64,000 nt of DNA from Bacilli bacterium (GTDB taxonomy: Bacteria; Bacillota_I; Bacilli_A; RF39; UBA660), in assembly GCA_017435465.1 (NCBI GenBank), contig JAFSEX010000005.1, positions 134,793 through 198,792 on the forward strand. The letters run 5' to 3'. Positions 1,987 to 49,571 of the stretch are shown piece after piece. How positions within the stretch are numbered: position 1 is the first letter of the stretch; every line of letters starts with the position of its first letter. The translations under genes were made by a program, and so were the position numbers. The notes below the pieces were generated by a model, which worked only from the letters and a program-made list of their open reading frames with translations, made no database searches and had not been told where the DNA came from.

Positions 1987-2463
1987 CTATAAACATTCAA
2001 CGTGAGTATCTTCTAAACATTTTAAAATTTTACAACAACATCCCATATCAATACTAAAGAAATCACTTGTTTTTACATATGGGAAACATGATGTTTGATC
2101 AGGATTAGGTGCTAAGCATCTAAAAGTACAAACACATCCATCAATTTTTTCTATTCTGAATATATTTGTTGTATTAGTATATCCATCTAGAGTATATTCT
2201 ATTAATAATGGATCACCACCACAAGAAAATAATTTTAAAGGTCTTGTATTACATTCTTGTACTTTTTTACAACAACCTAGAGTTGCTCTATCGCAAAATT
2301 CTTCTTCCTCCTCAAATCTTTCCGCACGTTCTTGTGCATTTAAAATTCTTTGTAATATTTGTATAATACCATCATTTTCACAGTTACATCCACATCCTTC
2401 ATTGTTTCTTTGGAATGTATTGGCTGCTGATGCCATTGATGCTTGATTATCAAAACATGACAT
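1987..2463 (-). CDS. CotY/CotZ/ExsY-family cysteine-rich spore coat protein
   Basis: 158 aa with many Cys. The C-terminal FRIEKIDGCVCTFR..DFFSIDMGCCCKILKCLEDTHVECL resembles the CotZ/CotY C-terminus (..VDLDCFCAINCLN..). It is a paralog of 60707-61150. Confidence 0.7.
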   Translation of the reverse strand: MSCFDNQASMASAANTFQRNNEGCGCNCENDGIIQILQRILNAQERAERFEEEEEFCDRATLGCCKKVQECNTRPLKLFSCGGDPLLIEYTLDGYTNTTNIFRIEKIDGCVCTFRCLAPNPDQTSCFPYVKTSDFFSIDMGCCCKILKCLEDTHVECL

Positions 2464-2576
2464 ATTTTTTTGATCTCCTTTCTATTTACACTTTAATATA
2501 TTCGACTTTTTTTCTAAAGAATAATTATAATAACCAAATTTATTAAAAATTTAATATTTACTTTTCGAACAAACGT

Positions 2577-3383
2577 ATGTTACAATTAAAAAGGGTGATA
2601 CATGTGGAAATAACAAAATTTAAAAAGAAAAATAAAGATCAATATGAACTATATTTAGATAATAATCAAAAAATAAATGTTTATGAAGATGTAATTATTA
2701 AAAATAATTTACTTGTTAATAAATATATAGATGAAGAATTACTAAATAAAATAAATAAAGATAATAATTCATCAAGTATATATTCAAAATGCATAAAATA
2801 CATTAGTTTAAGAATTAGAAGTGAAAAAGAAATACGTGATTATTTAGAAAAAAACGAATATGACATAGAACTTATCAACAAAACTGTTGATAGACTTAAA
2901 AATAATAAATTAATTAATGATAACTTGTTTACAGAGTCATTTATAAATGATAAAACAATACTTACAAATTATGGACCATTAAAAATTAAAAATGAGTTAT
3001 CAAAACATAAAATAGATATAAATGTAATCAATGAATATTTAGAAAAAGTTGATAAATCCATTTTTGATGAAAAAATAGAAAAAATAATAAATAAATATAT
3101 TAAAAATAATACTAAATATTCAAATACAATGTTAAAAAATAAAATACAAACACATTTAACGGATTTAGGATATCCAAAAGAAATGTATATATATAAATTA
3201 GATGAAACAAACATACACGAAAATGATGCGATTTTAGAAAAGGAATTTCAAAAAGAATATAAGAAACTATCAAGAAAATATACTGATAATGAACTTAAAT
3301 TAAAACTTAGACAAAAAATGTATCAAAAAGGATTTAATGTGTCAAAAATAGATAAATTTATAGATGAATTTATCCATTTATAG
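2577..3383 (+). CDS. recX: recombination regulator RecX
   Basis: 268 aa. KCIKYISLRIRSEKEIRDYLEKNEY plus repeated three-helix modules is typical of RecX. The true start may be the in-frame GTG at 2604, after aagggtga. Confidence 0.7.
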   Translation: MLQLKRVIHVEITKFKKKNKDQYELYLDNNQKINVYEDVIIKNNLLVNKYIDEELLNKINKDNNSSSIYSKCIKYISLRIRSEKEIRDYLEKNEYDIELINKTVDRLKNNKLINDNLFTESFINDKTILTNYGPLKIKNELSKHKIDINVINEYLEKVDKSIFDEKIEKIINKYIKNNTKYSNTMLKNKIQTHLTDLGYPKEMYIYKLDETNIHENDAILEKEFQKEYKKLSRKYTDNELKLKLRQKMYQKGFNVSKIDKFIDEFIHL

Positions 3384-3404
3384 TATAATCATAAATGAAA
3401 GCTG

Positions 3405-4370
3405 GTGAAGTGTATGAACAAAAAAGTAGTAGTGCTTGGTGGTGGAACCGGGTTATCAACTTTACTTAGAGGATTAAAACAATTTCCTGTTGATATAACT
3501 GCAGTTGTATCTGTTAGCGATGATGGAAGTTCAACAGGAAGACTTAGAGAAGAATTTAATATACCTGCTATTGGGGATTTAAGAAATGTAATGGTAAGTT
3601 TATCAGAAGTTGAACCAATTTTGGAACAATTATTACAATATAGATTTAAAACTAATAGTGATTTAAATGGGCATCCAGTAGGAAATTTATTACTTGCAGC
3701 AATGTTAGATGTTACAGGTGATATGGTAGGTGCAGTTTCAGCATTTGCAAAAATTTTAAATATTAAAGGTAAAATTTTACCGTTTACTGAAGAGCAAACA
3801 ACTTTAATGGCTGAAACAAGTGATGGAGAAATTTTAGAAGGTGAATCAAAAATCACTAAAGCTGGAAAAGTAATAAAAACAATTTATTATAAAGAAACAC
3901 CAAAAGTTGTTCCTGAAGTAATCGATGCAATTTTAAATTCGGATTTGATTGTGTTCTCAACAGGTAGTTTATATACAAGTATATTACCAAATATAATTTG
4001 TGATGAAATGACAGAAGCTATTAAAAAGAGTAAAGCTAAAAAAATGTATATTTGTAATATAATGACTGAACATGGAGAAACGGATAATTTCAAAGTTAGT
4101 GATTATGTAAAAATATTAAACAAATATGTAGGAACTGATTTTTTAGATGCAGTAGTTGTAAATTCAAAATATATTGATGTAGATATACAAGATAGATATA
4201 AAAGATTAGAAAAAAGTGAACCTGTAATAGTAGATGAACACGAACTAAAAAAATTAAATATTGAAGTTATTGCTGATAACTTGGTACATATAAATGATAA
4301 AAATCAAGTTAGACATAACTCAATGAAAACTGCATTTTTAATCTTTTCATATCTAATTAGAGGTGAATAA
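3405..4370 (+). CDS. yvcK: YvcK/GlmR (CofD-like) gluconeogenesis/cell-shape factor
   Basis: VVVLGGGTGLSTLLRGLK N-terminus and the conserved yvcK-whiA gene pair. Confidence 0.85.
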   Translation: MKCMNKKVVVLGGGTGLSTLLRGLKQFPVDITAVVSVSDDGSSTGRLREEFNIPAIGDLRNVMVSLSEVEPILEQLLQYRFKTNSDLNGHPVGNLLLAAMLDVTGDMVGAVSAFAKILNIKGKILPFTEEQTTLMAETSDGEILEGESKITKAGKVIKTIYYKETPKVVPEVIDAILNSDLIVFSTGSLYTSILPNIICDEMTEAIKKSKAKKMYICNIMTEHGETDNFKVSDYVKILNKYVGTDFLDAVVVNSKYIDVDIQDRYKRLEKSEPVIVDEHELKKLNIEVIADNLVHINDKNQVRHNSMKTAFLIFSYLIRGE

Positions 4371-6781: not shown

Positions 6782-8896
6782 ATGAACAATAACATGAATC
6801 CTTTTGCAGAATCTATTCAAAATCCTCTTGAAAAATTTGGTAGAAATATAGTTGAAGAAGTTAAGAAAGGAAAAATAGATCCTGTAATTGGTAGAGATGA
6901 AGAAGTAAGAAATATTACAAGAATTTTATCTCGTAAAACTAAAAATAATCCAGTTTTAATTGGTGAACCAGGTGTAGGTAAAACTGCAATTGTTGAAGGA
7001 CTTGCTTGGAGAATTGTAAAAGGTGATGTCCCAAACAGCCTAAAAGATAAATCAATTTTTGAACTTGATATGGGTGCTTTAATTGCAGGTGCTAAATATA
7101 GAGGTGAATTTGAAGAAAGATTAAAAGCTGTTCTAAAAGAAATAAAAGAAAGCGATGGAAAAATAATTTTATTTATAGATGAAATACATATGATAGTTGG
7201 TGCAGGTGCAACCGATGGGGCAATGGATGCGGGTAATATGTTGAAACCATTACTTGCTCGTGGTGAAATTCATACAATTGGTGCAACTACATTAAATGAA
7301 TATAGAAAATATATTGAAAAAGATGGTGCTCTTGAAAGACGTTTCCAAAAAGTAATAGTTTCTGAACCTAATGTATTAGATACAATTACAATATTACGTG
7401 GTTTAAAACAAAGATTTGAAGTTCATCATGGAGTTACAATATCTGATAAAGCATTAGTTGCTGCAGCTAATATGTCAAATAGATATATTACTGATAGATT
7501 TTTACCTGATAAGGCAATAGATCTTATTGATGAAGCTTGTGCAACAATAAAAGTACAAATGGATTCTGTACCAGTTGAATTAGATACACTAACTCGTAAA
7601 ATAATGAGATTAGAAATAGAAAAACAAGCTTTAAAAAAGGAAAAAGATGACATAAGTAAAAATAGAGTTGAAAAAATTAATGATGAGTTAGAAACTTTAA
7701 AAGCAAAAGAAGATAATATTCGTAAATCTTGGGAAGAAGAAAAATCTATAAATATAAATATTAATAAAAAGAAACAAGAACTAGAAGATGCAAAATTCAA
7801 ATTAGAAACTGCTGAAAATAATTATGATTTAGAAAGTGCAGCTAGACTAAGACACGGAACAATACCAAAATTAGAAACTGAACTTTCTGAATTAAAGAAA
7901 AAAGATTCTAATAAAATGTTAAGTGATACTGTTAGTGAAGAAGATGTAGCAAGTATTATTTCACGTTGGACTAAAATACCTATAACTAAATTAGTTGAAG
8001 GTGAAAAGGAAAAGTTATTAAATTTAGAAGAAAATATGAAAAAAAGAGTAATTGGTCAAGACAATGCATTAGAGTTAGTTAGTGAAGCAATAATTAGAGC
8101 TCGTGCAGGAATTAAAGATCCGAATAGACCAATTGGTTCATTCATATTTTTAGGACCAACAGGCGTTGGTAAAACAGAAGTTGCGCGCACATTAGCCTAC
8201 GAACTATTCGATGATGAAAAACATATTATTAGAATTGATATGAGTGAATATATGGAAGCTCATTCAGTTGCTAGATTAATTGGTTCTCCTCCAGGATATG
8301 TTGGATATGATGATGGAGGACAATTAACAGAAGCTGTAAGAAGAAATCCATATAGTATAATTTTATTTGATGAAATTGAAAAGGCTCATAGAGATGTATT
8401 TAATATATTATTACAAATATTAGATGATGGTAGAATTACAGATGGGCAAGGTAGAACTGTAGATTTTAAAAACACTATAATAATAATGACTTCTAACTTA
8501 GGTAGTGAATATATATTAAGTGAAGAATCAAAAGCAAATGAACTTGTTATGAAAGAGTTAAGAAACACATTTAGACCAGAATTCATAAATCGCATTGATG
8601 AAATAATTATATTTAATTCATTAAATCAAAAAACTATGTATAAAATTCTAGATAAACTAACTTTTGAATTAAATAAAAGATTAAGTGATAAAAATGTTAA
8701 TATTACTTTAACTGAAGAAGCTAAAAATTATATTGTTTCACATGGTAGTGATTCAATATATGGAGCTCGTCCACTAAAAAGATTTGTAAGTAAAAATATT
8801 GAAACATTACTTGCTAAAGAATTGGTTTTAGATAATATAAAATATGGAGAGCAATTAACAATAGATGTTGATAATAATAAATTAGTTATAAAATAA
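6782..8896 (+). CDS. clpB: ClpB disaggregase lacking the N-terminal domain
   Basis: Two AAA+ modules ([15 protein letters not shown]; [15 protein letters not shown]) and a coiled-coil middle domain. The protein begins at the position equivalent to the internal-start short ClpB isoform. Confidence 0.9.
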
Positions 8897-34828: not shown

Positions 34829-35722
34829 ATGGAAAAATATTTGGAAGATTTTAAAAAATATATTGAATTTCAAAGAGGATATTCAACAAATACCATTATA
34901 AACTATGAAAATGATATAAAAGAATTTTTAGAATTTTTAAATAAAGAAAATATTGATAATATTAAAAATGCAAATTATTCATTAGTAAGGTTTTATTTAA
35001 TGGATTTGTATGATAAAAAATTTTCAAGAAATTCTGTTTCAAGAAAACTTAGTTCATTAAGAAGTTTTTTTAAATATTTGCACAAAGAAAATATAGTTGA
35101 GGCTAATCCTTTCTCATTAGTTTCTTCACCAAAAAAAGAAAAAAAATTACCAAAATTTTTATATAATGATGATATAGAAAAAGTATTTGATGTTCCAAAT
35201 CTTAATTCATCATTAGGTCAAAGAGATATGCTAATCTTAGAAATACTATATGATACAGGAATAAGAGTTAGTGAACTTGTTAATATTAAATTAAAAGATA
35301 TAGATTTTGACAATAAAAGTATACGAATACTTGGAAAAGGAAATAAAGAAAGAATAGTTTTATATGGAAGTTATGCTGAAGACATTTTAAATGAATATAT
35401 GAAAGATGGAAGAAAAAGAATTTTAAAAGAAAAAAATAATGAATATTTAATCTTGAATGCTAAAGGTGAAAATATTACAAGTAGAGGAGTAAGATTGATT
35501 TTAGATAATATAATAAAAAAAGCTTGTTTAAAAGTACATATTTCACCACATACACTAAGACATACTTTTGCAACACATTTACTTGAAAATGGCGCAGATT
35601 TATTAACGGTAAAAGAACTTCTTGGACATTCGTCATTGTCATCAACAGGTATATACACACATGTAACAAATGAAAGGCTTAGAAATGTTTATCTGCATTC
35701 ACATCCAAGGGCTAGAAAATAG
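34829..35722 (+). CDS. xerC: tyrosine recombinase XerC/XerD family
   Basis: SAM-like N-domain, catalytic R..(HTLRHTFATHLL)..GHSSLSSTGIYTHV pattern, 297 aa. Confidence 0.8.
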   Translation: MEKYLEDFKKYIEFQRGYSTNTIINYENDIKEFLEFLNKENIDNIKNANYSLVRFYLMDLYDKKFSRNSVSRKLSSLRSFFKYLHKENIVEANPFSLVSSPKKEKKLPKFLYNDDIEKVFDVPNLNSSLGQRDMLILEILYDTGIRVSELVNIKLKDIDFDNKSIRILGKGNKERIVLYGSYAEDILNEYMKDGRKRILKEKNNEYLILNAKGENITSRGVRLILDNIIKKACLKVHISPHTLRHTFATHLLENGADLLTVKELLGHSSLSSTGIYTHVTNERLRNVYLHSHPRARK

Positions 35723-36652: not shown

Positions 36653-39289
36653 ATGACAAAATTTGTATACTCTTTTAGAGAGGGTAATGCAGACATGAGA
36701 AACCTTCTTGGTGGAAAAGGTGCTAACTTAGCAGAAATGACTAATTTAGGATTACCAATTCCTCAAGGTTTTACAGTAACAACTGAAGCATGTACTGATT
36801 ACTATAATAATGATAAGAAAATCAGTGAAACAATTGAAACACAAATTTTCGAAGCTATGAAAGAACTTGAAAAAATTCAAGGAAAAACATTTGGAGATAC
36901 TAAAGATCCATTATTAGTATCAGTAAGAAGTGGTGCTAGAGCATCAATGCCTGGTATGATGGATACTATTCTTAACTTAGGATTAAATGATGAAGCAGTT
37001 GAAGGATTTGCTACAAAAACTGGAAATCCAAGATTTGCATATGATTCATATAGAAGATTTATTCAAATGTATTCTGACGTAGTTATGGAAGTTAACAAAA
37101 GTTTCTTTGAAAAAATTATCGATGAATTAAAAGAAGAAAAAGGAATTAAATATGATACAGAAATGACTGTTGAAGATTTAAAAGAATTAGTTAATAAATT
37201 CAAAGATGTTTATTCTGAACACATGAATGGTGCTGAATTCCCACAAGATCCAAAAGAACAATTAATGGGAGCTGTTAAAGCTGTATTTAGATCATGGGAT
37301 AATCCACGTGCAATCGTTTACAGAAGAATGAATGATATTCCAGGAGACTGGGGAACTGCTGTAAACGTTCAAGCAATGGTATTTGGTAATATGGGTGAAA
37401 CTTCAGGAACTGGGGTTGCATTTACAAGAAATCCATCTACTGGTGAAAAAGGTATTTATGGTGAATACTTAATTAATGCTCAAGGTGAAGACGTTGTTGC
37501 TGGTGTTAGAACTCCACAACCAATTTCTAAACTAGAAGAAGATATGCCTGAATGTTATAAAGAATTCATGGAAATCGCAACTAAACTAGAAAATCACTAT
37601 AGAGACATGCAAGATATGGAATTTACTATTCAAGAAGGTAAATTATATTTCTTACAAACAAGAAATGGTAAAAGAACTGCTCCTGCAGCAATTCAAATCG
37701 CATGTGATTTAGTTGATGAAGGAATGATTACTAAAGAAGAAGCAATTTTAAGAATTGAAGCAAAAAGTTTAGATCAATTATTACATCCAACATTTGATGC
37801 AGCTGCATTAAAAGCAGGTGAAGTAATTGGTTCAGCACTTCCAGCATCACCTGGTGCAGCAGCAGGTTATGTAGTATTTACTGCTGAAGATGCAAAAAGA
37901 GAAGGTATCAATGGTAAAGGTGAAAGAGTTATTTTAGTTAGACTTGAAACTACACCAGAAGATATCGAAGGGATGATTGCTGCTCAAGGTATTTTAACTG
38001 TACGTGGTGGTATGACTTCACATGCTGCAGTAGTTGCTCGTGGTATGGGTACTTGCTGTGTATCAGGATGTGGAGAAATCAAAATTAATGAAGAAGAAAA
38101 ATACTTTGAACTTGGTGGATATACTTTCAGGGAAGGTGATTATATCTCATTAGATGGTACAACAGGAAAAATCTATAAAGGAGATATTAAAACTGTTGAA
38201 GCATCAGTATCTGGAAATTTTGGACGTATTATGGCATGGGCTGATGAGATGAGAACACTAAAAGTTAGAACAAATGCTGATAACCCAAGAGATACACGTC
38301 AAGCAGTAGAATTAGGTGCTGAAGGTATTGGACTTTGTAGAACAGAACACATGTTCTTTGACGAAGTTAGAATTCCAAAAATCAGAAAAATGATTTTATC
38401 TGAAACTGTTGAAGCTAGAGAAGCTGCATTAAATGAATTAATTCCATTCCAAAAAGCAGACTTCAAAGCTATGTATAAAGAATTAAAAGGTCTACCAATG
38501 ACTGTTCGTTATTTAGACCCACCTTTACATGAATTCTTACCAACTTTAGAAGAAGATATTATTGCTTTAGCTAATGAAATGGGAGTAAGCGTAGAACAAT
38601 TAAAAAATAAATGTGCAGATTTACATGAATTTAACCCAATGATGGGACATAGAGGATGTCGTTTAGCTGTAACATATCCAGAAATTGCTAAAATGCAAAC
38701 AAGAGCACTTATGGAAGCTGCTATTGAAGTTAAGGAAGAAGATGGATATGACATCACTCCTGAAATTATGATTCCACTTGTTGGAGAAAAGAAAGAGTTA
38801 AAATTTGTTAAAGATGTAGTTATTGAAACAGCTGAAAAAGTAAAAGCAGAAAAAGCATCAGACATTGAATACCATATTGGTACAATGATTGAAATCCCAA
38901 GAGCTGCATTACTTGCAGATGAAATAGCTTCCGAAGCTGAATTCTTCTCATTTGGAACAAATGACTTAACACAAATGACATTTGGATTCTCAAGAGATGA
39001 TGCTGGTAAATTCTTAGATGCTTACTATCAAAGTAAAATCTATGAATCAGATCCGTTTGCAAAATTAGATCAAAATGGTGTTGGACAATTAGTTAAAATG
39101 GCTGTTGAAAAAGGTAAACAAACTCGTCCAAACATTAAACTTGGAATTTGTGGTGAACATGGTGGAGAACCATCTTCAGTTGAATTTTGTCATAATGTAG
39201 GATTATCTTATGTATCATGTAGTCCATTTAGAGTTCCTATTGCAAGATTAGCTGCTGCACAAGCGGCCATAAAGTCGAGCCAAAAATAG
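36653..39289 (+). CDS. ppdK: pyruvate, phosphate dikinase
   Basis: MTKFVYSFREGNADMRNLLGGKGANLAEM.., GGMTSHAAVVARGMG catalytic His, CGEHGG. ATG 36653 follows aaaaggagg; the track start at 36593 is upstream read-through. The last ~9 codons appear to be supplied by the integrated element. Confidence 0.92.
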   Translation: MTKFVYSFREGNADMRNLLGGKGANLAEMTNLGLPIPQGFTVTTEACTDYYNNDKKISETIETQIFEAMKELEKIQGKTFGDTKDPLLVSVRSGARASMPGMMDTILNLGLNDEAVEGFATKTGNPRFAYDSYRRFIQMYSDVVMEVNKSFFEKIIDELKEEKGIKYDTEMTVEDLKELVNKFKDVYSEHMNGAEFPQDPKEQLMGAVKAVFRSWDNPRAIVYRRMNDIPGDWGTAVNVQAMVFGNMGETSGTGVAFTRNPSTGEKGIYGEYLINAQGEDVVAGVRTPQPISKLEEDMPECYKEFMEIATKLENHYRDMQDMEFTIQEGKLYFLQTRNGKRTAPAAIQIACDLVDEGMITKEEAILRIEAKSLDQLLHPTFDAAALKAGEVIGSALPASPGAAAGYVVFTAEDAKREGINGKGERVILVRLETTPEDIEGMIAAQGILTVRGGMTSHAAVVARGMGTCCVSGCGEIKINEEEKYFELGGYTFREGDYISLDGTTGKIYKGDIKTVEASVSGNFGRIMAWADEMRTLKVRTNADNPRDTRQAVELGAEGIGLCRTEHMFFDEVRIPKIRKMILSETVEAREAALNELIPFQKADFKAMYKELKGLPMTVRYLDPPLHEFLPTLEEDIIALANEMGVSVEQLKNKCADLHEFNPMMGHRGCRLAVTYPEIAKMQTRALMEAAIEVKEEDGYDITPEIMIPLVGEKKELKFVKDVVIETAEKVKAEKASDIEYHIGTMIEIPRAALLADEIASEAEFFSFGTNDLTQMTFGFSRDDAGKFLDAYYQSKIYESDPFAKLDQNGVGQLVKMAVEKGKQTRPNIKLGICGEHGGEPSSVEFCHNVGLSYVSCSPFRVPIARLAAAQAAIKSSQK
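39258..39264 (+). repeat. attL core (CACAAGC)
   Basis: The identical 7-mer recurs at 45976-45982 in the same reading-frame context (AQAAIK / SQAAIK). Confidence 0.5.
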
Positions 39290-39323
39290 AACGAGAAGTC
39301 GTTCCAATAAAAATAAATACTTA

Positions 39324-39345
39324 AAGAACCGAAAGGTTCTTTTTT
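39324..39345 (+). terminator. Element-borne terminator serving ppdK
   Basis: aagaacc-gaaa-ggttctt followed by tttt. Confidence 0.65.
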
Positions 39346-39510: not shown

Positions 39511-39969
39511 ATGTTTTACAAAAAAGAATTATTAGAGAATATGTCACAAGGGGCAAGATTAAAATTTATAAGGAAGAATAAAGGGATAGAACTTAATGAT
39601 ATAGCTGCATATTTGGGTTATAGCAGTAATAAACCAATTCGTGAATGGGAAAATAATACAAAGAGTCCAGATGCAAGAAATTTGTCTAGGTTAGCAGAAG
39701 CATATGGTGTATGTATTGATGCAATAAAAAAATATGATTTCATTGATCCAATAGATGAAATATATTATCAAATGTGGTATGAAGAACAATACCCATATTA
39801 TCAGTTTCAATTACCAGAAAGATTTGCAGGTTCAGCATATAACTTTAATGTTCAAAATGGAATAAATGAATGGTTAAAGATGAGAGAAAAAAGAGAAAAT
39901 TATGAAATAACAGATCAAGAATATCTTGAATGGAAATTAAACTATAAATTAGAAAGTTTAATAAAATAA
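39511..39969 (+). CDS. XRE-family HTH regulator
   Basis: GARLKFIRKNKGIELNDIAAYLGYS....IREWENN...P....LSRLAEAYGV is an HTH_3-type pattern. RBS aaaggagag. Confidence 0.6.
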   Translation: MFYKKELLENMSQGARLKFIRKNKGIELNDIAAYLGYSSNKPIREWENNTKSPDARNLSRLAEAYGVCIDAIKKYDFIDPIDEIYYQMWYEEQYPYYQFQLPERFAGSAYNFNVQNGINEWLKMREKRENYEITDQEYLEWKLNYKLESLIK

Positions 39970-40009: not shown

Positions 40010-41119
40010 ATGGGAAAGTACTTAGACAATTTAAATGATGAAGTAAGAGAATATTTTAGTATCTTATCACCAACATTTCCAGAATGGTTATTAGAATATA
40101 TAGATACCCCAGAAATGGAAAGAATTGGGAAAATAAGTATGAGTTGTGGAACAGATTACTCTAAATGCTTTAATCTAAGGTATTGGTATTCTAATTTAGA
40201 TCATAGTGTTGGAGTAGCATTAATAATATGGAATTTTACTCATGACAAAAAACAAACTTTAGCTGGATTATTTCATGATATAGCAACTCCAGTATTTAAA
40301 CATTGTATAGATTTTATGAATGGCGATTCAGAAACACAAGAATCTACTGAAGAAAGAACAACTGATATTATTAAAAATTCAAAAGAGATAATGAATTTAT
40401 TAAATAGAGACGGAATAAAATTGGAAGAAGTAGATGACTATCATATATATCCAATTGCTGATAATGATACTCCAAGATTGTCAGCTGATAGATTTGAATA
40501 TACTTTTGCTAGTGGATTAACATTTTTTAGAGTATGGGAATTAGAACAAATAAGAAAGATGTACAATAATATAATAATTGTAAAAAATGAAGATGGCATA
40601 GATGAACTAGCATTTAAGGATAAAGAAGTGTGTGAAGAATATATTTATACTATATCAAGACTTTGGCCTGAATGGGTAAGTGATAAAGATAGGACTGTTA
40701 TGCAATTTTTAGCAGATATGTGTAAATCTATGAGCAATGCTGGATATTTAACAATAGATGATTTATATGCATTATCAGAAGAAGAAATAATTAATAAATT
40801 TTTAAATTGTAATGATGCTTATCTATCTGATAGTTTTAGAAGATTTCAAAATGCTGATACAGTTTATCAAAGTGTTGAATATGTTGATGGAAGATATTGT
40901 GTAAATATTAGAGCAAAAACAAGATATGTTACTCCATTAGTTTTAACTGAAAATGGTCCAGTAAGAATTAATATTATATCTAAAAAAGCAAATGAAGAAA
41001 TAAATAAATATTTATGTTTACCAAAAGGTGGATACTATACATATTTTGATTTTGACTTTAAGCCATATGAAGGTCCAGTAAAAAAACTAGTAAAAACAAA
41101 TGTAACAAATAACCAATAA
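40010..41119 (+). CDS. HD-domain phosphohydrolase, divergent SAMHD1/YwfO (dNTPase-like) type
   Basis: ..TPEMERIGKISMSCGTDY......YSNLDHSVGVALI...(19 aa)..LAGLFHDIATPVFKH parallels F.RL..I.Q.G.......SR.EHSLGV...ALLHD.GHGPFSH. Confidence 0.6.
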   Translation: MGKYLDNLNDEVREYFSILSPTFPEWLLEYIDTPEMERIGKISMSCGTDYSKCFNLRYWYSNLDHSVGVALIIWNFTHDKKQTLAGLFHDIATPVFKHCIDFMNGDSETQESTEERTTDIIKNSKEIMNLLNRDGIKLEEVDDYHIYPIADNDTPRLSADRFEYTFASGLTFFRVWELEQIRKMYNNIIIVKNEDGIDELAFKDKEVCEEYIYTISRLWPEWVSDKDRTVMQFLADMCKSMSNAGYLTIDDLYALSEEEIINKFLNCNDAYLSDSFRRFQNADTVYQSVEYVDGRYCVNIRAKTRYVTPLVLTENGPVRINIISKKANEEINKYLCLPKGGYYTYFDFDFKPYEGPVKKLVKTNVTNNQ

Positions 41120-41261
41120 TTATTTAAAAAAATCTTTCGAATATGAGCATTCAAAGAAGTAGAAACACTTCCTTTTCTTATGCTAAATAAATATGAAAGA
41201 ATAACAAATAGATGCAAAACTGTTAACTATAATAGTAAAAATATGTTATAATAAAAATAGC

Positions 41262-41285
41262 GAATATCTTATGATATTCTTTTTT
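41262..41285 (+). terminator. Terminator-like hairpin just upstream of the KAP NTPase gene
   Basis: gaatatc-ttat-gatattc followed by tttttt. It is preceded by TATAAT boxes at 41228-41233 and 41247-41252. Confidence 0.45.
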
Positions 41286-41313
41286 CTTTTTATATAGGTA
41301 GGAGGTTTTAGTA

Positions 41314-44199
41314 ATGATTTGTAATAAGATAACCAACGACAAAAAAACTAGTGTTGATAAAAATAAAGGAGAATATGAAAATAAATATGAAAGTATGTCT
41401 CCAAAAGATGATATAGAAATAAATCAATATAGCGAGTTGATACATGCTCTAAGTAATGACAAACTTTTAAATATAGGTGTAACTGGACCATATAGTTCCG
41501 GAAAATCATCAGTCATTAAATCTATATTTAAGAAAAAAGAGTTATTAAAAAATACATTATTTGTTTCTTTTGCTGATTTTAAAGGTAAAAAAGTAAAAAG
41601 TAATATAGTTGGTACTAATTATGATGAAAATTCTGTTGATATAAGTGAATTAGAAAAAACAATAATTGATGAAATATGTAATTATTCAGTCATAAAGAAA
41701 TTTAAATCGAAAAAGTACTGGAAGAGATTTTTAATCCTTTTATTAATATTTATTTTGGGCAGTTTAGTGTTTATAAAAAGTATTTGTGAGTTTATATGCA
41801 ATAATACTTTAATATCAGTACCAATTTTTCTGCTATGCATTATAACTTTATTAATTATTTCATATTATATTAATAATTTTAGTTTCAAAATAACATATTC
41901 TAATTTTGAAGTTGATGTTAAAAATAAAGATGAAATATTTGATCATAATATTAATTATCTTATAGAAATATTAAAAACACTTAAAATCAAGTATATAGTT
42001 TTTGAGGATATCGATAGATATCAAGATGTTGAGATATTTGAAAAAATCCATAATATGAATACTTTGATCAATCTTAGTTTAGAATCAAAAGTAAAGTTTA
42101 TATATGTTGTATCTGATAACTTAATAGGAGATGGGTTAAATAGAGTTAAATTTTTTGATTATATTTATCCTATAATACCGTTTGTTTCTTATAGTACATC
42201 TGGTGATAAGGCACTTACTAGATTAAAAACACTTGGTCTTATTGGTAAAAATGGTTTAGATAGAAAATTCATATATAATACATTTTTGTATATAAATGAC
42301 TATAGAATTGTAACTGATATTATTAACGAATATATTGTTTATTTAAATGCGATAGATGAAAGTATAAAAAATTGTAATTATTTTAATTATAATTCTTTAT
42401 TTGCAATAATAAGTTATAAAGTATTATTCCCAGAAGATTTTTCAAAATTGGAAAAGGAATCAGATGATTGTATTTTATTAAGTGCTTTTGATTGCAAATC
42501 ATTTAAAGAAATAAAAGAAAAAGCAACAGAGATAATGAATGAAGAAGATAAAGAAGAAAAACTAAAAACATTATCTGAAGCATTAAAATTATTAGCCTAT
42601 TTTATTACTTCTGGCTATATATTAAGAGAAACGTATAAAATGTATATTAAGAGATATTATTTTGATGAAATGGATATAAATGATTTTAATTTTATTCAAC
42701 AAGCAAATATGAAAAATATTGAAGAAAAAGATATTGATTTTAAGTTAGCAATAACACATCCTGATATTGTTATTGAAAGATTAGATGAGACTTCATATAA
42801 CAATATATCTTCATTGAATTATAACTTGTTATCTGAATTATTAAGCAAGAATACATCAAATTATAAAGAATTACTAAAAAAATATATAGATACCATATTT
42901 AATTTAAAAAACAAATATAAGTTTCTTTATGGCTTTTATGAATTTTCCGGTAAAAAGTTTGATAAGTTATTAAAGCAAATTATTGATGAAGAAAAGGACA
43001 TCATTAATGACTTAATTGACTTGGATGAGTGTAGTTACAAGAACGATTTTATATATCTAATTTTAAATAAATATGGATTACCTGAGTTAAAAATAGCCGA
43101 CATTAATTATGAAAAATTAATAAAAATTATAAGAAATAGTAAAATTGGGATAAAAAATGAAGTAAGTGGTGTTTTTACCACAAATATTGCTGAACTATCT
43201 ACAAAGGGCTTGAAATATGATGATCTTAGAGGAATTAAATCTGATGAATTACTTGAGACCATAGTTGAAAATGATTCATATGAAATTAATAAAGATAATA
43301 TTAATTTAATTTTAAAAAGATACTATGAATATTCAAATAAGAATATAAAAAAACAGCCAATTAAATTAATACTTGATAAAAATAATTCATATATTCTTTC
43401 TGATAAAAATAGAATTGTAGGTATATATTGTGAAAATGTTTCGGATTTATACGTAGATGATCAAGATATTATTAAAACAATATTATCTGATTCTTCAATC
43501 TCAACTATAAGTAAGGAAAATTTTATTCATAGTGAGAAAACTAAAATAGAAGATATTAGTTATATAATTGATGTAGATGTGTTAAATAAAATTATCGAGG
43601 AAGATAGACTTGTATGCAGTTGGGATAATATTTATTATTACTATGCTAAGGCATCTTCAAAAGATATATTATCAAATTATTTATCTTCTAATGCTGGAAA
43701 CAATCTTTCCAATGAAGACATAAATGACAATATTAAACAAGATTTTTCTTTCTTGAAATATGTTATATCAATAGGTAATATTTCAAATGAATTATTTGAT
43801 AAAATATTAAATACATATCCTGATAAATATAATTTGTTAGAAATGTTTTCTACAAAAACTATTGCTATGGATGAATATAAATTAGACAAATTATTAAATA
43901 TACATGATTTTAATCATAAAGAAGAAATCCAACGATTTAAGATTAAAATTATAAATAATAATTTTGATCTCATCAATGAAACTAATGTATCTGATAAATT
44001 GAATAAAATAGGTCATGATTATTCTTGGATGTTAATAAATAACAAAAAGCCTGAAATATCTAACAATATAGAAACAAAGAATCTAATAGAAAATTTAAAT
44101 TCTAAATTAAAATATAATATTGACTATGAAGAAAGTAATGAAAGAATTTTTATCAAAGGTAGAAGAAATAAGAAACAAGTTTATAGTTTAAATAGGTAA
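41314..44199 (+). CDS. KAP/YobI-type P-loop NTPase with TM helices inserted in the NTPase domain
   Basis: Walker A GVTGPYSSGKSS (nt ~41476-41511). Two hydrophobic helices (RFLILLLIFILGSLVFI; VPIFLLCIITLLIISYYI) lie before Walker B KYIVFEDIDRY. Long C-terminal region. Strong RBS taggagg. Confidence 0.7.
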   Translation: MICNKITNDKKTSVDKNKGEYENKYESMSPKDDIEINQYSELIHALSNDKLLNIGVTGPYSSGKSSVIKSIFKKKELLKNTLFVSFADFKGKKVKSNIVGTNYDENSVDISELEKTIIDEICNYSVIKKFKSKKYWKRFLILLLIFILGSLVFIKSICEFICNNTLISVPIFLLCIITLLIISYYINNFSFKITYSNFEVDVKNKDEIFDHNINYLIEILKTLKIKYIVFEDIDRYQDVEIFEKIHNMNTLINLSLESKVKFIYVVSDNLIGDGLNRVKFFDYIYPIIPFVSYSTSGDKALTRLKTLGLIGKNGLDRKFIYNTFLYINDYRIVTDIINEYIVYLNAIDESIKNCNYFNYNSLFAIISYKVLFPEDFSKLEKESDDCILLSAFDCKSFKEIKEKATEIMNEEDKEEKLKTLSEALKLLAYFITSGYILRETYKMYIKRYYFDEMDINDFNFIQQANMKNIEEKDIDFKLAITHPDIVIERLDETSYNNISSLNYNLLSELLSKNTSNYKELLKKYIDTIFNLKNKYKFLYGFYEFSGKKFDKLLKQIIDEEKDIINDLIDLDECSYKNDFIYLILNKYGLPELKIADINYEKLIKIIRNSKIGIKNEVSGVFTTNIAELSTKGLKYDDLRGIKSDELLETIVENDSYEINKDNINLILKRYYEYSNKNIKKQPIKLILDKNNSYILSDKNRIVGIYCENVSDLYVDDQDIIKTILSDSSISTISKENFIHSEKTKIEDISYIIDVDVLNKIIEEDRLVCSWDNIYYYYAKASSKDILSNYLSSNAGNNLSNEDINDNIKQDFSFLKYVISIGNISNELFDKILNTYPDKYNLLEMFSTKTIAMDEYKLDKLLNIHDFNHKEEIQRFKIKIINNNFDLINETNVSDKLNKIGHDYSWMLINNKKPEISNNIETKNLIENLNSKLKYNIDYEESNERIFIKGRRNKKQVYSLNR

Positions 44200-44216: not shown

Positions 44217-44240
44217 AAAGAAGTAAAAATACTTCTTTTT
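44217..44240 (+). terminator. Terminator after the KAP NTPase gene
   Basis: aaagaagta-aaaa-tacttcttt followed by tt. Confidence 0.6.
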
Positions 44241-44309
44241 ATTATGTGCAAAATCGCACCCTAAACTTATTTATATAAAAGTGATAATTTCTTTGTAGAG
44301 GTGAGAAAA

Positions 44310-45908
44310 ATGAAAAGAAAGGTAGCAATTTATGCTAGAGTTTCAACTGAACATGAAGCTCAATTATCTGCTTTAGATAATCAAGTTCAATACTATGATG
44401 AAATTTTAAAGAAGAATCCTGATTGGATTCTTTATGATAGATACATAGATGAAGGAATAACAGGAACATCTACAAAGAAAAGAAAAAACTTTATGAGAAT
44501 GATAGAGGATGCAAAAGCAGGAAGATTTGATTTAATAGTTACTCGTGAGGTATCAAGATTTGCAAGAAATACAGTTGATACATTACAAGAAACTAGAAAG
44601 TTAAAAAATATTGGAGTAGAAGTATATTTTATTGAAGATAATATATGGACATTTAATGATGAGGATGGGGAATTAAAACTTACTATTATGGCTACACTTG
44701 CTCAAAATGAAAGTAAGAAAACATCTCAAAGAGTTAAAGCAGGACAAATGATATCATTTCAAAATGGTGTGTTCTATGGAACAGGAAATATACTTGGTTA
44801 TAACAAAGTGGGAAAGGATTTGGTAGTCAATGAAGAACAAGCTGAGATAGTAAAATTCATTTATTCTGAATATTTAAGTGGTAAAGGGACAGTTAAAATA
44901 GCAGATGAATTAACAAAAATGGAAGCACAAACATCAATGGGATTAACTAATTGGAGTGCTTCTTATGTGTCTAGAGTATTAAGGAATCCATTCTATTGTG
45001 GAACTATAGTTTATCGAAAATCATACATACCAGATTACTTGGAACAAAAACCTAAAATGAATTATGGAGAAGTTGAACAAGTAATAGTTGAAGGAAAACA
45101 TGAACCACTAGTGTCAAAAGAAGATTTTAAAAAGGTTCAACAAATAATGGATAGTCATTCTAAACCAATTAAAGTAGGAAGAAGACAAGCTACAGGAGTA
45201 CCTAGAAATATATGGAGTAAAAAATTAGTATGTGAATGTGGTTCTAATTTTAATAGAAAGATTTATCACAAAAATAAAAAAGATACTACATATTGTTATG
45301 TATGTTATAACAAGAAAAACAGACCTAAGAGTAGATTTAAAGAAGCCTGCGGTATGAAAGAAGTTCAAGAATGGAAATTACAATATATGGCTGAATATAT
45401 TTTTAGAAATCTTACTCAAAATCCTGATAATAGAAAACAATTATTTGAACGATTAATGAAAGGAGTAGATATAGATGCACATCCTGAGATAAAGATAAGA
45501 CAAAGAATTGATAAATTAAATCAATTAATAGAAAAAGAAAATGAAAAGTTTGATAGACTTATAGATACATATTTAGATAAAACAATAGATATAAATTTAT
45601 ATGATATGTTTCAAAAAAAGTTATCAAGTAGAATAGAAAAATATAAAATAGAAATAATAGAATTAGAAAAGAAATGTGAATCAATTGAACCATTAGAAGT
45701 TAGAATTGAGAATGCAAAAAAGAGTATTAGAAGATTACTTGATATCAACTATAATGGTGTTGATGATAAAATAATAGAAGAATTTGTAGAAAAGATTATA
45801 GTTCATAAAGATTACTTTGAATGGAAATTAAACTTTATGAATGATACAATAAAATTAGAAATAAGCGGAAAAAGCAAAAAAGATGGATTTTTAATAGAAC
45901 GCGAATAA
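44310..45908 (+). CDS. large serine recombinase
   Basis: VAIYARVSTEHEAQLSALDNQ (catalytic Ser), resolvase domain, recombinase domain, Cys-rich zinc ribbon (CECG...C.VC) and coiled-coil tail. ATG 44310 follows agaggtga. Confidence 0.9.
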   Translation: MKRKVAIYARVSTEHEAQLSALDNQVQYYDEILKKNPDWILYDRYIDEGITGTSTKKRKNFMRMIEDAKAGRFDLIVTREVSRFARNTVDTLQETRKLKNIGVEVYFIEDNIWTFNDEDGELKLTIMATLAQNESKKTSQRVKAGQMISFQNGVFYGTGNILGYNKVGKDLVVNEEQAEIVKFIYSEYLSGKGTVKIADELTKMEAQTSMGLTNWSASYVSRVLRNPFYCGTIVYRKSYIPDYLEQKPKMNYGEVEQVIVEGKHEPLVSKEDFKKVQQIMDSHSKPIKVGRRQATGVPRNIWSKKLVCECGSNFNRKIYHKNKKDTTYCYVCYNKKNRPKSRFKEACGMKEVQEWKLQYMAEYIFRNLTQNPDNRKQLFERLMKGVDIDAHPEIKIRQRIDKLNQLIEKENEKFDRLIDTYLDKTIDINLYDMFQKKLSSRIEKYKIEIIELEKKCESIEPLEVRIENAKKSIRRLLDINYNGVDDKIIEEFVEKIIVHKDYFEWKLNFMNDTIKLEISGKSKKDGFLIERE

Positions 45909-45974
45909 TAATAAGTCATTTTAGTCTCAATGGAGCGTGTAGGGGCTCCAAATCGGTTTCCTTTGGTTTATGGT

Positions 45975-46004
45975 TCACAAGCTGCTATTAAAGCTGGAAA
46001 ATAA
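45975..46004 (+). pseudogene. Displaced native 3' end of ppdK
   Basis: tca caa gct gct att aaa gct gga aaa taa = SQAAIKAGK*, compared with the present ppdK end AQAAIKSSQK*. Confidence 0.55.
45976..45982 (+). repeat. attR core (CACAAGC)
   Basis: Same 7-mer as 39258-39264. The flanks differ to the left and are similar to the right. Confidence 0.5.
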
Positions 46005-46015
46005 TTAATAAATTA

Positions 46016-46045
46016 AGACTAAGATTTAAAAATCTTGGTCTTTTT
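46016..46045 (+). terminator. Probable native ppdK terminator
   Basis: agactaagat/atcttggtct 10-bp stem followed by ttttt. Confidence 0.6.
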
Positions 46046-47031: not shown

Positions 47032-47262
47032 AATATAAATTAATACTAGGAGAATCTAACTTTTTTGAAGAAAAAATATTGTAATAAACATTTTCTTTAT
47101 GTATAATTATCTTGTATTAAATAGTTTGCCTGATATTTATATGACAATTTAATCGATAAGGGATAATTCTAAAGGCAAAATAGAAATATTCATGATGCGG
47201 AAGATACTTATTTTAAGATAAGTGTCTTCTTTTTTTGTTATTTTAAAAGGAGGAAAAACATT

Positions 47263-48144
47263 ATGAATGAAATAATAGAAAAAGAAAACATAATAATTGA
47301 AGATATGATTTATGAAGTTAGAGAAATGCAAGTTATGTTAGATTCTGATATAGCAAAACTATATCAAGTTGAAACTAAAAGAATAAATGAAGCTGTAAAA
47401 AATAATCTGGATAAATTTCCAGAAAGATATAGTTGGTTATTAACAAGAGAAGAAACAAAAAAATTAAGGTCGAAAATTTCGACCTTAGAAATAAAAGGAC
47501 AAGGAAAATATAGTAAATATGTTCCAAGAGTATTTACAGAACAAGGTTTATATATGTTAGCTACAATATTAAAATCTAAAGTGGCAACAGAAGTTACAAT
47601 TTCAATTATGGATACTTTTGTAAAAATGAGACATTATATAAATTATAATAAGAAATTTTTACCACATAAATTTATGCTGCTAGAGAAGCAAGTAGATGAT
47701 AATACCAAAAGAATAAATGAACTATTTGATAAATTTGATCCTAAAGTTATAGTCAAAGATTATATATTTTTTGAAGGAGAATTTTATGATGCATACTCAT
47801 TATTGTTAGATATTTTTAACAATACTAAAGAAGAAACTATAATAATAGATAATTATGCTTCTAAGGATTTGTTAGATATATTAAAGAAAATAGATAAGAA
47901 AATAATAATAGTATCTAAAAATATAGATGAAATATTAAAGAAGAAATATGAAAGTCAATATAATAATATAACATTTATAAATAATAATTCATTTCATGAT
48001 AGATTTATCATAATAGATAAACAAAAATTATATTCATGTGGTGCTTCATTTAAAGATTTGGGTAAAAAATGTTTTGCAATCCACGAATTTAATGAAAAAG
48101 AATATTTAAACAAACTATTAAATATATTAAATTTGCAATTTTAA
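47263..48144 (+). CDS. ORF6N-domain DNA-binding protein with a C-terminal HDRF...GAS domain
   Basis: IYEVREMQVMLDSDIAKLYQVETKRINEAVKNN..FPE...LT.EE...LRS is the ORF6N/KilA-N-like pattern. The C-terminus has IIIDNY....FHDRFIIID...LYSCGASFKDLGKK. Confidence 0.65.
   Translation: MNEIIEKENIIIEDMIYEVREMQVMLDSDIAKLYQVETKRINEAVKNNLDKFPERYSWLLTREETKKLRSKISTLEIKGQGKYSKYVPRVFTEQGLYMLATILKSKVATEVTISIMDTFVKMRHYINYNKKFLPHKFMLLEKQVDDNTKRINELFDKFDPKVIVKDYIFFEGEFYDAYSLLLDIFNNTKEETIIIDNYASKDLLDILKKIDKKIIIVSKNIDEILKKKYESQYNNITFINNNSFHDRFIIIDKQKLYSCGASFKDLGKKCFAIHEFNEKEYLNKLLNILNLQF
47466..47486. repeat. Perfect 21-nt palindrome inside the ORF6N gene
   Basis: aaggtcgaaa-a-tttcgacctt, encoding LRSKISTL. Confidence 0.8.
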
Positions 48145-48162: not shown

Positions 48163-48450
48163 ATGAATAAAATAATAGAAAAAGAAAATATAACAATTGA
48201 AGATATGATTTATGAAGTTAGTGGTGTACAAGTAATACTTTCTTCTGATGTAGCTAAATTATATCAAGTTGAAACTAAAGTATTAAATCAGGTTATTAAT
48301 AGAAATATAAATAGATTTTCAGAAAGATTTTGTTTTCAATTAAATAATACTGAAATTGATAATTTATCTTTAAGGTCACAATTTGTGACCTTAAACAAAA
48401 ATAATAATAAGATTAAGATTTTAAAAATTTTATATTTTTTTAATTTTTAA
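48163..48450 (+). CDS. truncated ORF6N-domain paralog
   Basis: The first ~60 nt are nearly identical to 47263-. Homology ends at the palindrome and is followed by a low-complexity tail NKNNNKIKILKILYFFNF*. Confidence 0.5.
   Translation: MNKIIEKENITIEDMIYEVSGVQVILSSDVAKLYQVETKVLNQVINRNINRFSERFCFQLNNTEIDNLSLRSQFVTLNKNNNKIKILKILYFFNF
48372..48392. repeat. Perfect 21-nt palindrome inside the truncated paralog
   Basis: aaggtcacaa-t-ttgtgacctt, encoding LRSQFVTL. It differs from the first palindrome by two compensated pairs. Confidence 0.8.
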
Positions 48451-48514: not shown

Positions 48515-49108
48515 GTGGAAAAAGAAAAATTATATAATATTTTACTAAGTGATAATGTTGTAACTACTATTAATGATAATTTAGATTTTATTTTGACTTT
48601 AATTCCTGAATTAAAAGCTTTAATAGGATTTGAACATAATCATCCACATCACCATCTTGATGTTTGGAATCACACTTTGTTAACACTAAATCTCTCTCCA
48701 AGCAATTTTGAAATAAGATTGGTGTTATTATTACACGATATTGGGAAACCTAATTCCTACCAAGATGAAGAAGTAAGGCATTTCAGAGAACATACTAAAA
48801 TATCATCTAATATGTCATTTAATATTTTAAAGAGATTAAATTTTAATGAGGATGAAATATTTAAATTATGTTATTTAATAGAACAACACGATACTCTGAT
48901 AACAGATGAAGAAATAGATAATAATAAGAAATTAGCAACAATAAAATTTAAAATCCAATGTTGTGATGCATTAGCTCATAATCCTACAAAATTAGAAAAA
49001 AGAATAAAATATTTACTAGATATCAACGAAAAAATAAATACAGGAAAAGAAAAAGATAAATGTAAAAAACTAATATCTAAAATTTCTAAAGAAATTACAG
49101 AGGAATAG
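48515..49108 (+). CDS. stand-alone HD-domain protein (CCA-enzyme-type HD)
   Basis: HNHPHHHLDVWNHTLLTL ... RLVLLLHDIGKP resembles the HD phosphohydrolase domain fused to some CCA-adding enzymes. Confidence 0.6.
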   Translation: MEKEKLYNILLSDNVVTTINDNLDFILTLIPELKALIGFEHNHPHHHLDVWNHTLLTLNLSPSNFEIRLVLLLHDIGKPNSYQDEEVRHFREHTKISSNMSFNILKRLNFNEDEIFKLCYLIEQHDTLITDEEIDNNKKLATIKFKIQCCDALAHNPTKLEKRIKYLLDINEKINTGKEKDKCKKLISKISKEITEE

Positions 49109-49109: not shown

Positions 49110-49571
49110 ATGGTAGTTTATAGAGTATGTAAAAAAGAAGAACTTAAAAAAATTTTAGAAGATAATAGTTTTAGAAATATCGGATACAATTTTTTTGATT
49201 CAAATTTAAATACACACAAATACAATATAAATAGTAAATACTTACATTTTTTTCTAAACAAAGATAGTATCCTTTATTTAAGAACCTTAAAAGATAGGTA
49301 TATTTGTATTTATGATATTCCAGAGGATATTTTAAAACAAAGTGAAGGAATAGGGTATTATTGGGATTATATTAATTATAGAGTTTTAAATGAAGTAACA
49401 GAATATGCTGTTGAAAGTAGTAATATTAAAATGATTTATTTAAAACAAGTTAGTTATATAAAAAAAGATATAGATTATGAAGAATTTTTAGATGATTATG
49501 ATTTATCAGAATATGTTGATACTATTTATAATAGTGTTGAAGGAAAAAGATTGTTATTAAAAAAATTTTAG
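49110..49571 (+). CDS. hypothetical protein, translationally coupled to the HD protein
   Basis: The ATG lies 1 nt after the upstream TAG. 153 aa with no recognised motif. Confidence 0.45.
   Translation: MVVYRVCKKEELKKILEDNSFRNIGYNFFDSNLNTHKYNINSKYLHFFLNKDSILYLRTLKDRYICIYDIPEDILKQSEGIGYYWDYINYRVLNEVTEYAVESSNIKMIYLKQVSYIKKDIDYEEFLDDYDLSEYVDTIYNSVEGKRLLLKKF

Follow-up and report, generated by a model that had tools for sequence, protein, structure and literature searches.

The 961-amino acid (aa) protein encoded at positions 41314–44199 (+ strand) of the analyzed window, a 64,000-nucleotide (nt) stretch of a Bacilli bacterium genome (assembly GCA_017435465.1, contig JAFSEX010000005.1, positions 134,793 to 198,792 of the forward strand), is a nucleoside triphosphatase (NTPase) that almost certainly belongs to the Tmn/YobI family. 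It is a new short-form member of a known antiphage family, not a new system, and homology and genomic context make an antiphage role likely. The explanation that fits best, with a probability of about 0.72, is that this short-form Tmn/YobI protein is a self-contained, single-gene antiphage system. The evidence comes from the open reading frame (ORF) itself, Pfam and PADLOC profiles, homologues, an AlphaFold2 (AF2) model and codon analysis.

The family assignment is clear in profile searches. The Pfam model YobI-ATPase (PF20693) matches aa 41–383 with 196.6 bits against a cut-off of 27 bits (E=1.1e-57); the match is nearly full-length, covering profile positions 4–359 out of 363, and scores 197–200 bits over the searches, which bears out the resemblance to YobI-type NTPases proposed in the first-pass annotation of this DNA, made from the letters alone. 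The PADLOC model for Tmn, PDLC02220, also matches, in two stretches (E=1.5e-29, 100.6 bits), a profile score taken without the PADLOC coverage rules. All 100 homologues listed carry PF20693, and a precomputed match to KAP_NTPase (PF07693) is present in just one of them (P0023); in the window protein (aa 1–409 searched), PF07693 is absent even at E<=10. The first-pass designation as a KAP NTPase therefore fails in the Pfam sense, and the literature is split on the filing of Tmn: it is described as a KAP-family NTPase with two unusual transmembrane (TM) domains in PMC11846954, where the first report is credited to Gao et al. 2020, but YobI is treated as a distinct family in PMC13001434. The NCBIfam search with the 961-aa protein yields no match, and the sequence search of the PDB gives nothing at E<=1, that is, no sequence relative with a solved structure. 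Foldseek comparison with the PDB produces weak generic matches only (best E=1.3e-3), to Cdc6/Orc1 and RFC (AAA+) for the ATPase part and to Avs4, RdrA and the transportin/RRP12 solenoids for the remainder, and identifies no effector domain. The 'yobI' of a promoter-terminator preprint is an unrelated small Escherichia coli gene, and this lead was dropped.

The P-loop NTPase domain (41434–42462, + strand), delimited by the profile match, motifs, hydropathy and the residue alignment with Tmn-25 of E. coli, contains the Walker A motif GVTGPYSSGKSS at aa 55–66 and the Walker B motif IKYIVFEDIDRY at aa 225–236. Two hydrophobic helices, at aa ~136–158 and ~164–187, lie between these motifs: Kyte-Doolittle values over 19-residue windows exceed 1.6 solely at aa ~135–163 and ~157–191 (peaks of 2.74 and 2.68), the highest value beyond aa 250 is 1.1, and the long AF2 helices of this region span aa 110–152, 154–163 and 165–188. 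The order of Walker A, two hydrophobic helices and Walker B, read initially from the translation, is thus located as claimed, and so is the placement of the helices inside the P-loop domain. Seven lysines and arginines precede the first helix, three follow the second, and the short loop between them has one, a distribution that fits an in-out-in hairpin with both P-loop halves in the cytoplasm. Taken together, hydropathy and the AF2 model fit an NTPase domain split by a two-helix membrane hairpin, with both halves predicted to face the cytoplasm; two TM helices within the P-loop domain are the signature of the YobI family according to PMC13001434.

The residues required for the activity of Tmn-25 provide a more specific comparison. 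The protein WP_064055658.1 of plasmid pHNTC9e (L014; 1273 aa, annotated as 'anti-phage transmembrane ATPase'), which has every residue mutated in PMC13001434 at the published numbering, represented Tmn-25 in an alignment of 60 family sequences. In this alignment, G63/K64 and D232/R235 of the window protein correspond to G66/K67 and D276/R279 of E. coli Tmn and are invariant in 60 out of 60 sequences; N253, K279/F280 and R331 match N297, K325/F326 and R374 of Tmn-25 and are invariant in 59–60 of the 60. Altogether, eight of the nine NTPase-domain residues that are essential in Tmn-25 are kept, and the residues that would bind the nucleotide and coordinate Mg are all present. Among plasmids, tblastn detects distant relatives on 626 records, mostly from Escherichia and including 476 conjugative ones, with the matches confined to aa ~200–385 at 26–47% identity (~29–33% in E. 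coli).

The first-pass annotation left about 700 residues without a function, but ~580 residues after the NTPase domain align collinearly with the arms of YobI/Tmn proteins. The AF2 model of the 961-aa protein has a mean predicted local distance difference test score (pLDDT) of 82.5, with values of ~90 over aa 500–950. In this model and in the alignment to a hidden Markov model (HMM) of long family members, an all-alpha, solenoid-like, presumably cytosolic arm region at aa ~391–905 (42484–44028, + strand; ~520 residues, ~40 short helices, pLDDT ~85–95) is followed by a small C-terminal alpha/beta domain at aa ~906–961 (44029–44196, + strand), with strands at aa 914–916, 938–940 and 944–947 and a helix at aa 919–931. 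A search with aa 390–961 against 1.84 billion representatives returns strong matches from the protein's own cluster only and 33 weak matches (E of 1e-9 to 1e-3, 20–32% identity); these lie mostly at positions ~480–1100 of proteins of ~1100–1330 aa, the rest being shorter proteins or fragments, and all eight of the eight weak relatives checked are YobI-ATPase proteins. The HMM, built from 54 long family members only, matches the window protein in three pieces: aa 16–417 to positions 5–420 (E=1e-91), aa 402–844 to positions 538–988 (E=6e-53) and aa 869–951 to positions 1108–1191 (E=4e-8). The collinearity of the three pieces implies that the C-terminal part is the family's own, much diverged arm region, which is presumed to be the trigger sensor.

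The same alignment defines the short architecture. Compared with the long forms, the window protein has two deletions of ~118 positions each, the second of which removes ~120 positions near the C-terminus of the long form. The first deletion is shared with ~15 other family members of 809–1050 aa, so the missing segment appears to be a facultative module, a long-form feature and not a family-wide one, and its absence a matter of architecture and not of damage.

Six orthologues of 950–961 aa with 68–84% identity to the window protein are detectable, all of them from metagenome contigs. When the window gene is compared at the codon level with the orthologues in loci L005, L008, L009 and L010 (Nei-Gojobori, window gene versus the four others), none of the five genes contains an internal stop codon, the synonymous divergence dS is 0.55–0.8, and omega, the ratio of nonsynonymous to synonymous divergence, is 0.22–0.27 for the whole gene, 0.10–0.21 for the NTPase core and 0.28–0.36 at aa 621–850. 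Thus, purifying selection acts across the whole gene and is most relaxed in the distal helices, the expected location of the sensor. In locus L011 (1419–3731), the orthologue is 5'-truncated to 770 aa, with the homology beginning at window position 41848 (~aa 179), so the protein has neither Walker A nor the first TM helix; the adjoining recombinase gene is intact.

This conservation makes it highly improbable that the window gene is a decaying, non-functional relic without the modules needed for activity. Such a reading could draw on the loss of two long-form modules of ~120 positions, with residues essential in Tmn-25 among them, and on the clearly truncated relative in L011, but the full-length orthologues of 950–961 aa lack stops in the genes compared by codon, evolve at omega of 0.22–0.27, retain invariant catalytic residues and share a conserved promoter and leader, and the first deletion recurs in the ~15 other members.

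What the protein does can be approached through Tmn-25, which is reported to assemble into a membrane decamer whose cytosolic arms are alpha-solenoids, and to be activated by the phage T2 protein RIIB, upon which ATP turnover, Mg2+ export and plasmolysis follow (PMC13001434, a 2026 preprint). By analogy with Tmn-25, the window protein would oligomerize in the membrane, its helical arms would bind an early phage protein, binding of this trigger would turn on ATP hydrolysis, and the collapse of ATP together with the export of ions (Mg2+) would halt phage development. The first-pass proposal of a defence effector agrees with the demonstrated antiphage activity of the family (PADLOC Tmn; PMC13001434, PMC11846954); the accompanying notion of abortive infection does not, given that the studied member instead showed a partly reversible plasmolysis state (PMC13001434).

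This difference bears on the alternative that the protein is a KAP/PifA-type abortive infection effector whose activation depolarizes the membrane, leaks nucleotides and kills the cell. The window protein and the KAP NTPases, such as PifA of the F plasmid and EF_KAP of Enterococcus, are alike in general design, membrane-associated P-loop NTPases on mobile elements with a role in defence, in the fusion to large regions without known domains and in the linkage to serine recombinases; KAP NTPases encoded beside serine recombinases defend Enterococcus (PMC13552941), and Tmn itself is filed under KAP in PMC11846954. However, the window protein gives no match to PF07693 at E<=10 compared with 200 bits for PF20693, and the placement of the TM helices differs along with the family: in the model of EF_KAP, one helix is N-terminal and the other internal (PMC13552941). 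The outcome differs as well, for PifA works by depolarization and leakage, as summarized in PMC13001434, whereas the studied YobI-family member caused neither depolarization nor gross leakage, and some cells recovered (PMC13001434). A PifA-like mode of action is therefore unlikely. For B. subtilis YobI itself, the name-giver of the family model that the window protein matches nearly end to end, no published function was found in the literature searched, and YobI is used here as a family label only.

The signals around the gene are those of an independent transcription unit. The two TATAAT boxes (41228–33 and 41247–52) and the hairpin with a T-run reported in the initial reading are all present at the positions given. 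In this DNA of 24% G+C, promoter-like sites occur at chance density (62 found versus 61 expected), so the scan is uninformative for the class as a whole; nonetheless, the predicted promoter at 41223–41252 (+ strand), with a weak -35 element TTAACT, an 18-nt spacer and the extended -10 element TGTTATAAT at 41244–52, is the best + strand match of the scan (10 out of 12 positions plus TG), and TG.TATAAT is invariant in seven of the seven loci, with only the second of the two TATAAT boxes conserved. A Shine-Dalgarno sequence, AGGAGG (41300–41305, + strand), is read 8 nt ahead of the ATG.

Between the promoter and the Shine-Dalgarno sequence, conservation and folding delineate a leader element (41262–41291, + strand) that consists of the palindrome GAATATC-TTAT-GATATTC (41262–79) and the run T6CT5. 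The hairpin alone has a free energy of -7.1 kcal/mol (z=-4.1; no shuffle out of 200 reached this stability); z weakens to -1.4 when it is folded within 62 nt of sequence, and the hairpin, terminator-shaped and A+U-rich, fails a scan for G+C-rich terminators. It is predicted to start ~2–3 nt into the transcript. The 29-nt palindrome with its T-run is invariant in the window, L005–L007, L008 and L009, four lineages in which the coding DNA is 77–82% identical; the 9-nt spacer ahead of it varies, and in L010 the 3' arm is deleted. Invariance of the palindrome while the gene has a dS of 0.55–0.8 implies selection, and the lack of variation makes covariation unusable. A second copy of the palindrome is not found in the window, so there is no hint of a regulon. 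Candidate functions are a (constitutive or regulated) attenuator, the option raised in the first-pass annotation, a 5' stabilizing stem or an operator for a host factor; an operator for the XRE protein encoded upstream is improbable, since the palindrome is kept in L008 and L009, where the XRE gene is missing.

The gene is also bracketed by a repeated hairpin. A 23-nt motif, AAGAAGTA.AAA.ACTTC.TTTT, occurs in exactly two copies in the 64 kb versus 0.05 expected, and the two flank the NTPase gene. Copy 1 (AAGAAGTAGAAACACTTCCTTTT, 41154–41176, + strand) is a weak, decayed terminator (-3.5 kcal/mol, z=-0.5); the same motif is found upstream of the Tmn gene in L005–L007 and L009, behind unrelated genes, and can thus be assigned to the left boundary of the Tmn cassette. 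Copy 2 (44218–44240, + strand) has the properties of the intrinsic terminator of the Tmn gene (-8.8 kcal/mol, z=-4.5) and is conserved in L005, L008 and L011. To judge from this pattern of conservation, the Tmn gene travels with its own predicted promoter, a conserved leader hairpin and its own putative terminator.

The neighbouring genes point in the same direction. Upstream of the Tmn gene and on the same strand lie a gene for a 152-aa XRE-family helix-turn-helix (HTH) protein (39511–39969, + strand; HTH_19 at 5e-9, HTH_3 at 1e-7, with weak matches to RstR/DicA-type repressors below the cut-off) and one for a 369-aa HD-like protein (40010–41119, + strand) that scores 17.4 bits with Pfam HD, under the 22-bit cut-off, yet displays the H..HD..D motif. 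The HD-like protein has no PADLOC or NCBIfam match, and the PDB sequence search with it gives nothing at E<=1; its family is very large and highly conserved (6606 matches, more than 120 clusters at 75–93% identity). Elsewhere, the HD-like gene is the last of an operon that also encodes a SMODS (PF18144) protein and a 258-aa protein (L016 4409–7107, L017 and L018), and these operons ride on elements with serine recombinases, TnpV and relaxases; the window gene is 'solo', without the SMODS operon. The SMODS-258-aa-HD combination may be an undescribed nucleotide-signalling defence operon.

Across seven neighbourhoods, all different, homology is limited to the Tmn gene with its own leader and terminator: at the DNA level it extends from 90–130 bp upstream of the ATG to just past the stop codon or into the recombinase gene. 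The HD gene adjoins the Tmn gene in none of the six diverged loci (L005, L008, L009, L010, L011 and the P0002 contig). In L005, the neighbours are XRE and DUF4379 genes, the latter in the place of the HD gene at the same site, with a NERD gene downstream; in L009, MethyltransfD12 and HNH genes; in L010, Ser_hydrolase and spermine synthase genes; in L011, a serine recombinase gene and then other cassettes; and in L008 and the P0002 contig, unknown genes. The L009 orthologue (358–3415) lies directly downstream of the MethyltransfD12 methylase and HNH_2 nuclease genes, a restriction-modification-like pair. Among the six diverged loci, the XRE gene is present in L005 alone; it is absent beside the Tmn gene in L008, L009, L010 and the P0002 contig. 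Immediately upstream of the NTPase gene in L008 lie counterparts of two window segments, the terminator hairpin past the island (7240–7275; window 46011–46045) and the 5' region of an ORF6N gene (7307–7542; window 47099–47342), without the SDR gene between them, which indicates that this neighbourhood has been rearranged.

The diversity of the neighbourhoods and the fact that the HD gene is never adjacent leave without support a three-gene cassette of the kind suggested at first, in which a toxic NTPase would be kept under repression by XRE, with HD as its co-effector or antidote. In its favour, one element holds all three genes side by side and in the same orientation, the XRE gene recurs at the same chromosomal site in L005, and the perfect palindrome, which overlaps the site where transcription of the NTPase gene is predicted to start, is a potential operator. 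But DUF4379, HNH, Ser_hydrolase or unknown genes replace HD beside the six diverged orthologues, L008 and L009 keep the palindrome unchanged with no adjacent XRE gene, the NTPase gene is set apart from HD by a hairpin motif and a separate promoter, the HD family has different partners elsewhere, such as SMODS, and Tmn has no conserved operon (PMC13001434). Such a cassette is accordingly very improbable. From the comparison of loci, HD is best described as an independent cargo gene, neither XRE nor HD appears to be a subunit, and XRE is probably the element's own regulator and not a partner of Tmn.

The element that carries the gene can be delineated by repeats of the 3' end of the PPDK gene. 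Downstream of the Tmn gene, a 535-aa, Ccr-like large serine recombinase is encoded at 44301–45908 (+ strand; Resolvase 7e-29, Recombinase 1e-24); its best NCBIfam matches are CcrB and CcrC, with scores far under the CcrA/B/C cut-offs (144 bits versus 900), and it is presumed to be the element's integrase. The left att-like repeat core (39257–39274, + strand), recognized by its translation and in alignments, lies inside the PPDK 3' end and encodes AQAAIK. Past the recombinase gene, a displaced remnant of the PPDK tail (45915–46004, + strand), ending in RFPLVYGSQAAIKAGK and a stop, contains the right att-like core (45975–45993), ~70 nt from the recombinase stop; this end echoes the current PPDK C-terminus, RVPIARLAAAQAAIKSSQK and a stop, at 39260. 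A single CAAGCNGCNATNAAAG pattern is present in the window, with zero expected. In the six-frame translation of the window, QAAI[KR] is found only at nt 39260 and 45978, and not once in 30 shuffles. A local DNA alignment pairs 39253–39274 with 45971–45993 and is marginal alone (score 35, z~2.5; shuffles 24.6 +/- 4.1, maximum 40), and it took the translated motif and the multi-copy alignment to make the repeat convincing. The latter, with eight copies, reveals a shared core of ~30 nt with the invariant CAAGC.GC.AT.AA (CA(C)AAGC.GC.AT.AA in the window cores) and a hairpin of its own after each copy.

The terminator scan, with four sites versus 0.5 expected, places a bidirectional hairpin after the current PPDK stop (39323–39342, no strand assigned) and a strong one next to the right repeat (46015–46042, + strand; 12-bp stem, -12.7 kcal/mol, z=-4.9), probably the original PPDK terminator. 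In L005, PPDK and XRE genes are found at the same site, the PPDK tail being 90% and the XRE protein 58% identical to those in the window. In L011, five + strand repeats (nt 5548, 6262, 7553, 8386 and 9070) encode AQAAIKxxx and a stop, one per cassette downstream of the recombinase (a 163-aa ORF; HTH with a 282-aa ORF; Fic; NUDIX). These data support a ~6.7-kb element (~39.26–46.0 kb) with XRE, HD, Tmn and recombinase genes, apparently integrated in the 3' end of PPDK; it would supply a replacement PPDK tail and terminator, leaving the native tail at its far end. The search for an empty site, by exact-identity look-ups of the HD and SDR proteins, yielded only island-bearing contigs of the same strain, and no related genome was found among the GTDB representatives. 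With the recombinase at one end, PPDK-tail repeats at both ends, and distant relatives on conjugative plasmids besides, the description of the gene as mobile-element cargo in the first-pass annotation holds.

The association with the recombinase raises the alternative that the protein serves the element, in plasmid or island exclusion or as an addiction module, and not phage defence. The linkage is found in four lineages, with the recombinase intact in the window and L011 (68.5% identical) and present as decayed remnants in L005 and L008; the search of 50,697 phage records, moreover, gave no homologue, and the function of this clade is assigned by homology. Conversely, all family members tested so far are antiphage (PMC13001434, PMC11846954), and the gene is still intact and selectively constrained in loci with a decayed recombinase (L005 and L008) or with none on the contig (L010), which suggests a value independent of element mobility. 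A role in element maintenance or in inter-element conflict, therefore, also appears unlikely.

Several further observations pertain to the surroundings of the element. Just past the island, the genes at 47263–48144 and 48163–48450 encode, respectively, an ORF6N protein with a match to PADLOC candidate PDC-S05 (E=5e-89) and a truncated second ORF6N copy of 95 aa, and these are followed by genes for an HDIG-type HD protein (48515–49108) and a 153-aa ORF without a family match (49110–49571); the stretch from PPDK to transketolase may be a defence hotspot. On the other side, upstream of the thymidine kinase and PPDK genes, a 297-aa tyrosine recombinase (34829–35722; Phage_integrase domains in the precomputed annotation of L001) may be XerC/D-like.

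The interpretation as a short-form Tmn/YobI antiphage system has to be weighed against a number of points that tell against it. The first deletion corresponds to positions 448–578 of E. coli Tmn, the segment with F506, Y541 and R544; F506 and Y541/R544 of Tmn-25, whose mutation abolished defence, fall in the alignment gap, and the equivalent of Y262 is E218 or K221 in the window protein, a position that is not conserved in the subclade. The best stretch of the PDLC02220 match covers positions 272–571 of 1273, such that the full PADLOC pipeline with its coverage rules might not call Tmn. Neither tblastn against the 50,697 phage records nor two pattern scans of the GTDB species representatives, one derived from the single protein and the other from the subclade alignment, found a homologue, so the subclade is known only from a handful of metagenome contigs. 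The mechanistic model comes from one preprint with an 11.6 A map (PMC13001434), no experiment on the window protein or any short-form member was found in the literature, and the host is an uncultured 'Bacilli bacterium' metagenome-assembled genome (MAG) of 24% G+C. The absence of the segment with F506, Y541 and R544 means that the oligomer contacts and the trigger of the short form likely differ from those of Tmn-25.

Two bolder readings, considered jointly, are possible but doubtful. The short forms may be a mechanistically distinct sub-type in which the loss of the proximal-arm segment, which in Tmn-25 is essential and contributes to the dimer interface, results in a different assembly and a different ATP-coupled output. 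The carrier, for its part, may be a platform similar to SCC or integrons, in which a Ccr-like recombinase of gut Bacilli stacks single-gene cassettes behind PPDK, each cassette (Tmn, Fic, NUDIX, HTH with an unknown gene) ending in a PPDK-tail repeat and its own terminator.

The window protein and Tmn-25 have in common the YobI-type P-loop, the two TM helices between Walker A and Walker B, the helical-repeat arms and the small C-terminal alpha/beta domain; the GK of Walker A, the D..R of Walker B and the N, KF and R residues are identical. Both are encoded by single-gene units without a conserved operon on mobile DNA, and in Tmn the variable C-terminal region is thought to set specificity (PMC13001434). 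The differences are substantial: Tmn-25 of the E. coli F-plasmid has ~1270 aa (1273 in WP_064055658.1) compared with 961 aa, the identity is ~29–33% and detectable by BLAST only over aa ~213–385, the equivalents of segment 448–578, of ~120 more positions near the C-terminus and of Y262 are missing, and the carrier is a chromosomal serine-recombinase island in a low-G+C Bacilli MAG, in contrast to the conjugative plasmid of E. coli Tmn.

The carrier itself has a counterpart in the staphylococcal cassette chromosome (SCC), in which Ccr large serine recombinases integrate into the 3' end of rlmH/orfX. Shared features are a Ccr-like large serine recombinase, apparent integration at the 3' end of a housekeeping gene and duplication of the gene tail as direct repeats, and in L011 also an array of cassettes separated by such repeats. 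The window element differs from SCC in its target, PPDK instead of rlmH, and in the sub-cut-off score of the recombinase.

The present findings overturn no part of the current understanding. They extend the Tmn/YobI defence family to an uncultured Bacilli lineage of very low G+C content. The compact form, which dispenses with a segment that is essential in the E. coli protein, helps to define the minimal functional core of the family, and the smaller protein would be easier to handle in structural work. The carrier is a clean example of a large serine recombinase moving defence cargo into the 3' end of a housekeeping gene, and supports the use of serine recombinases as bait for the discovery of defence genes.

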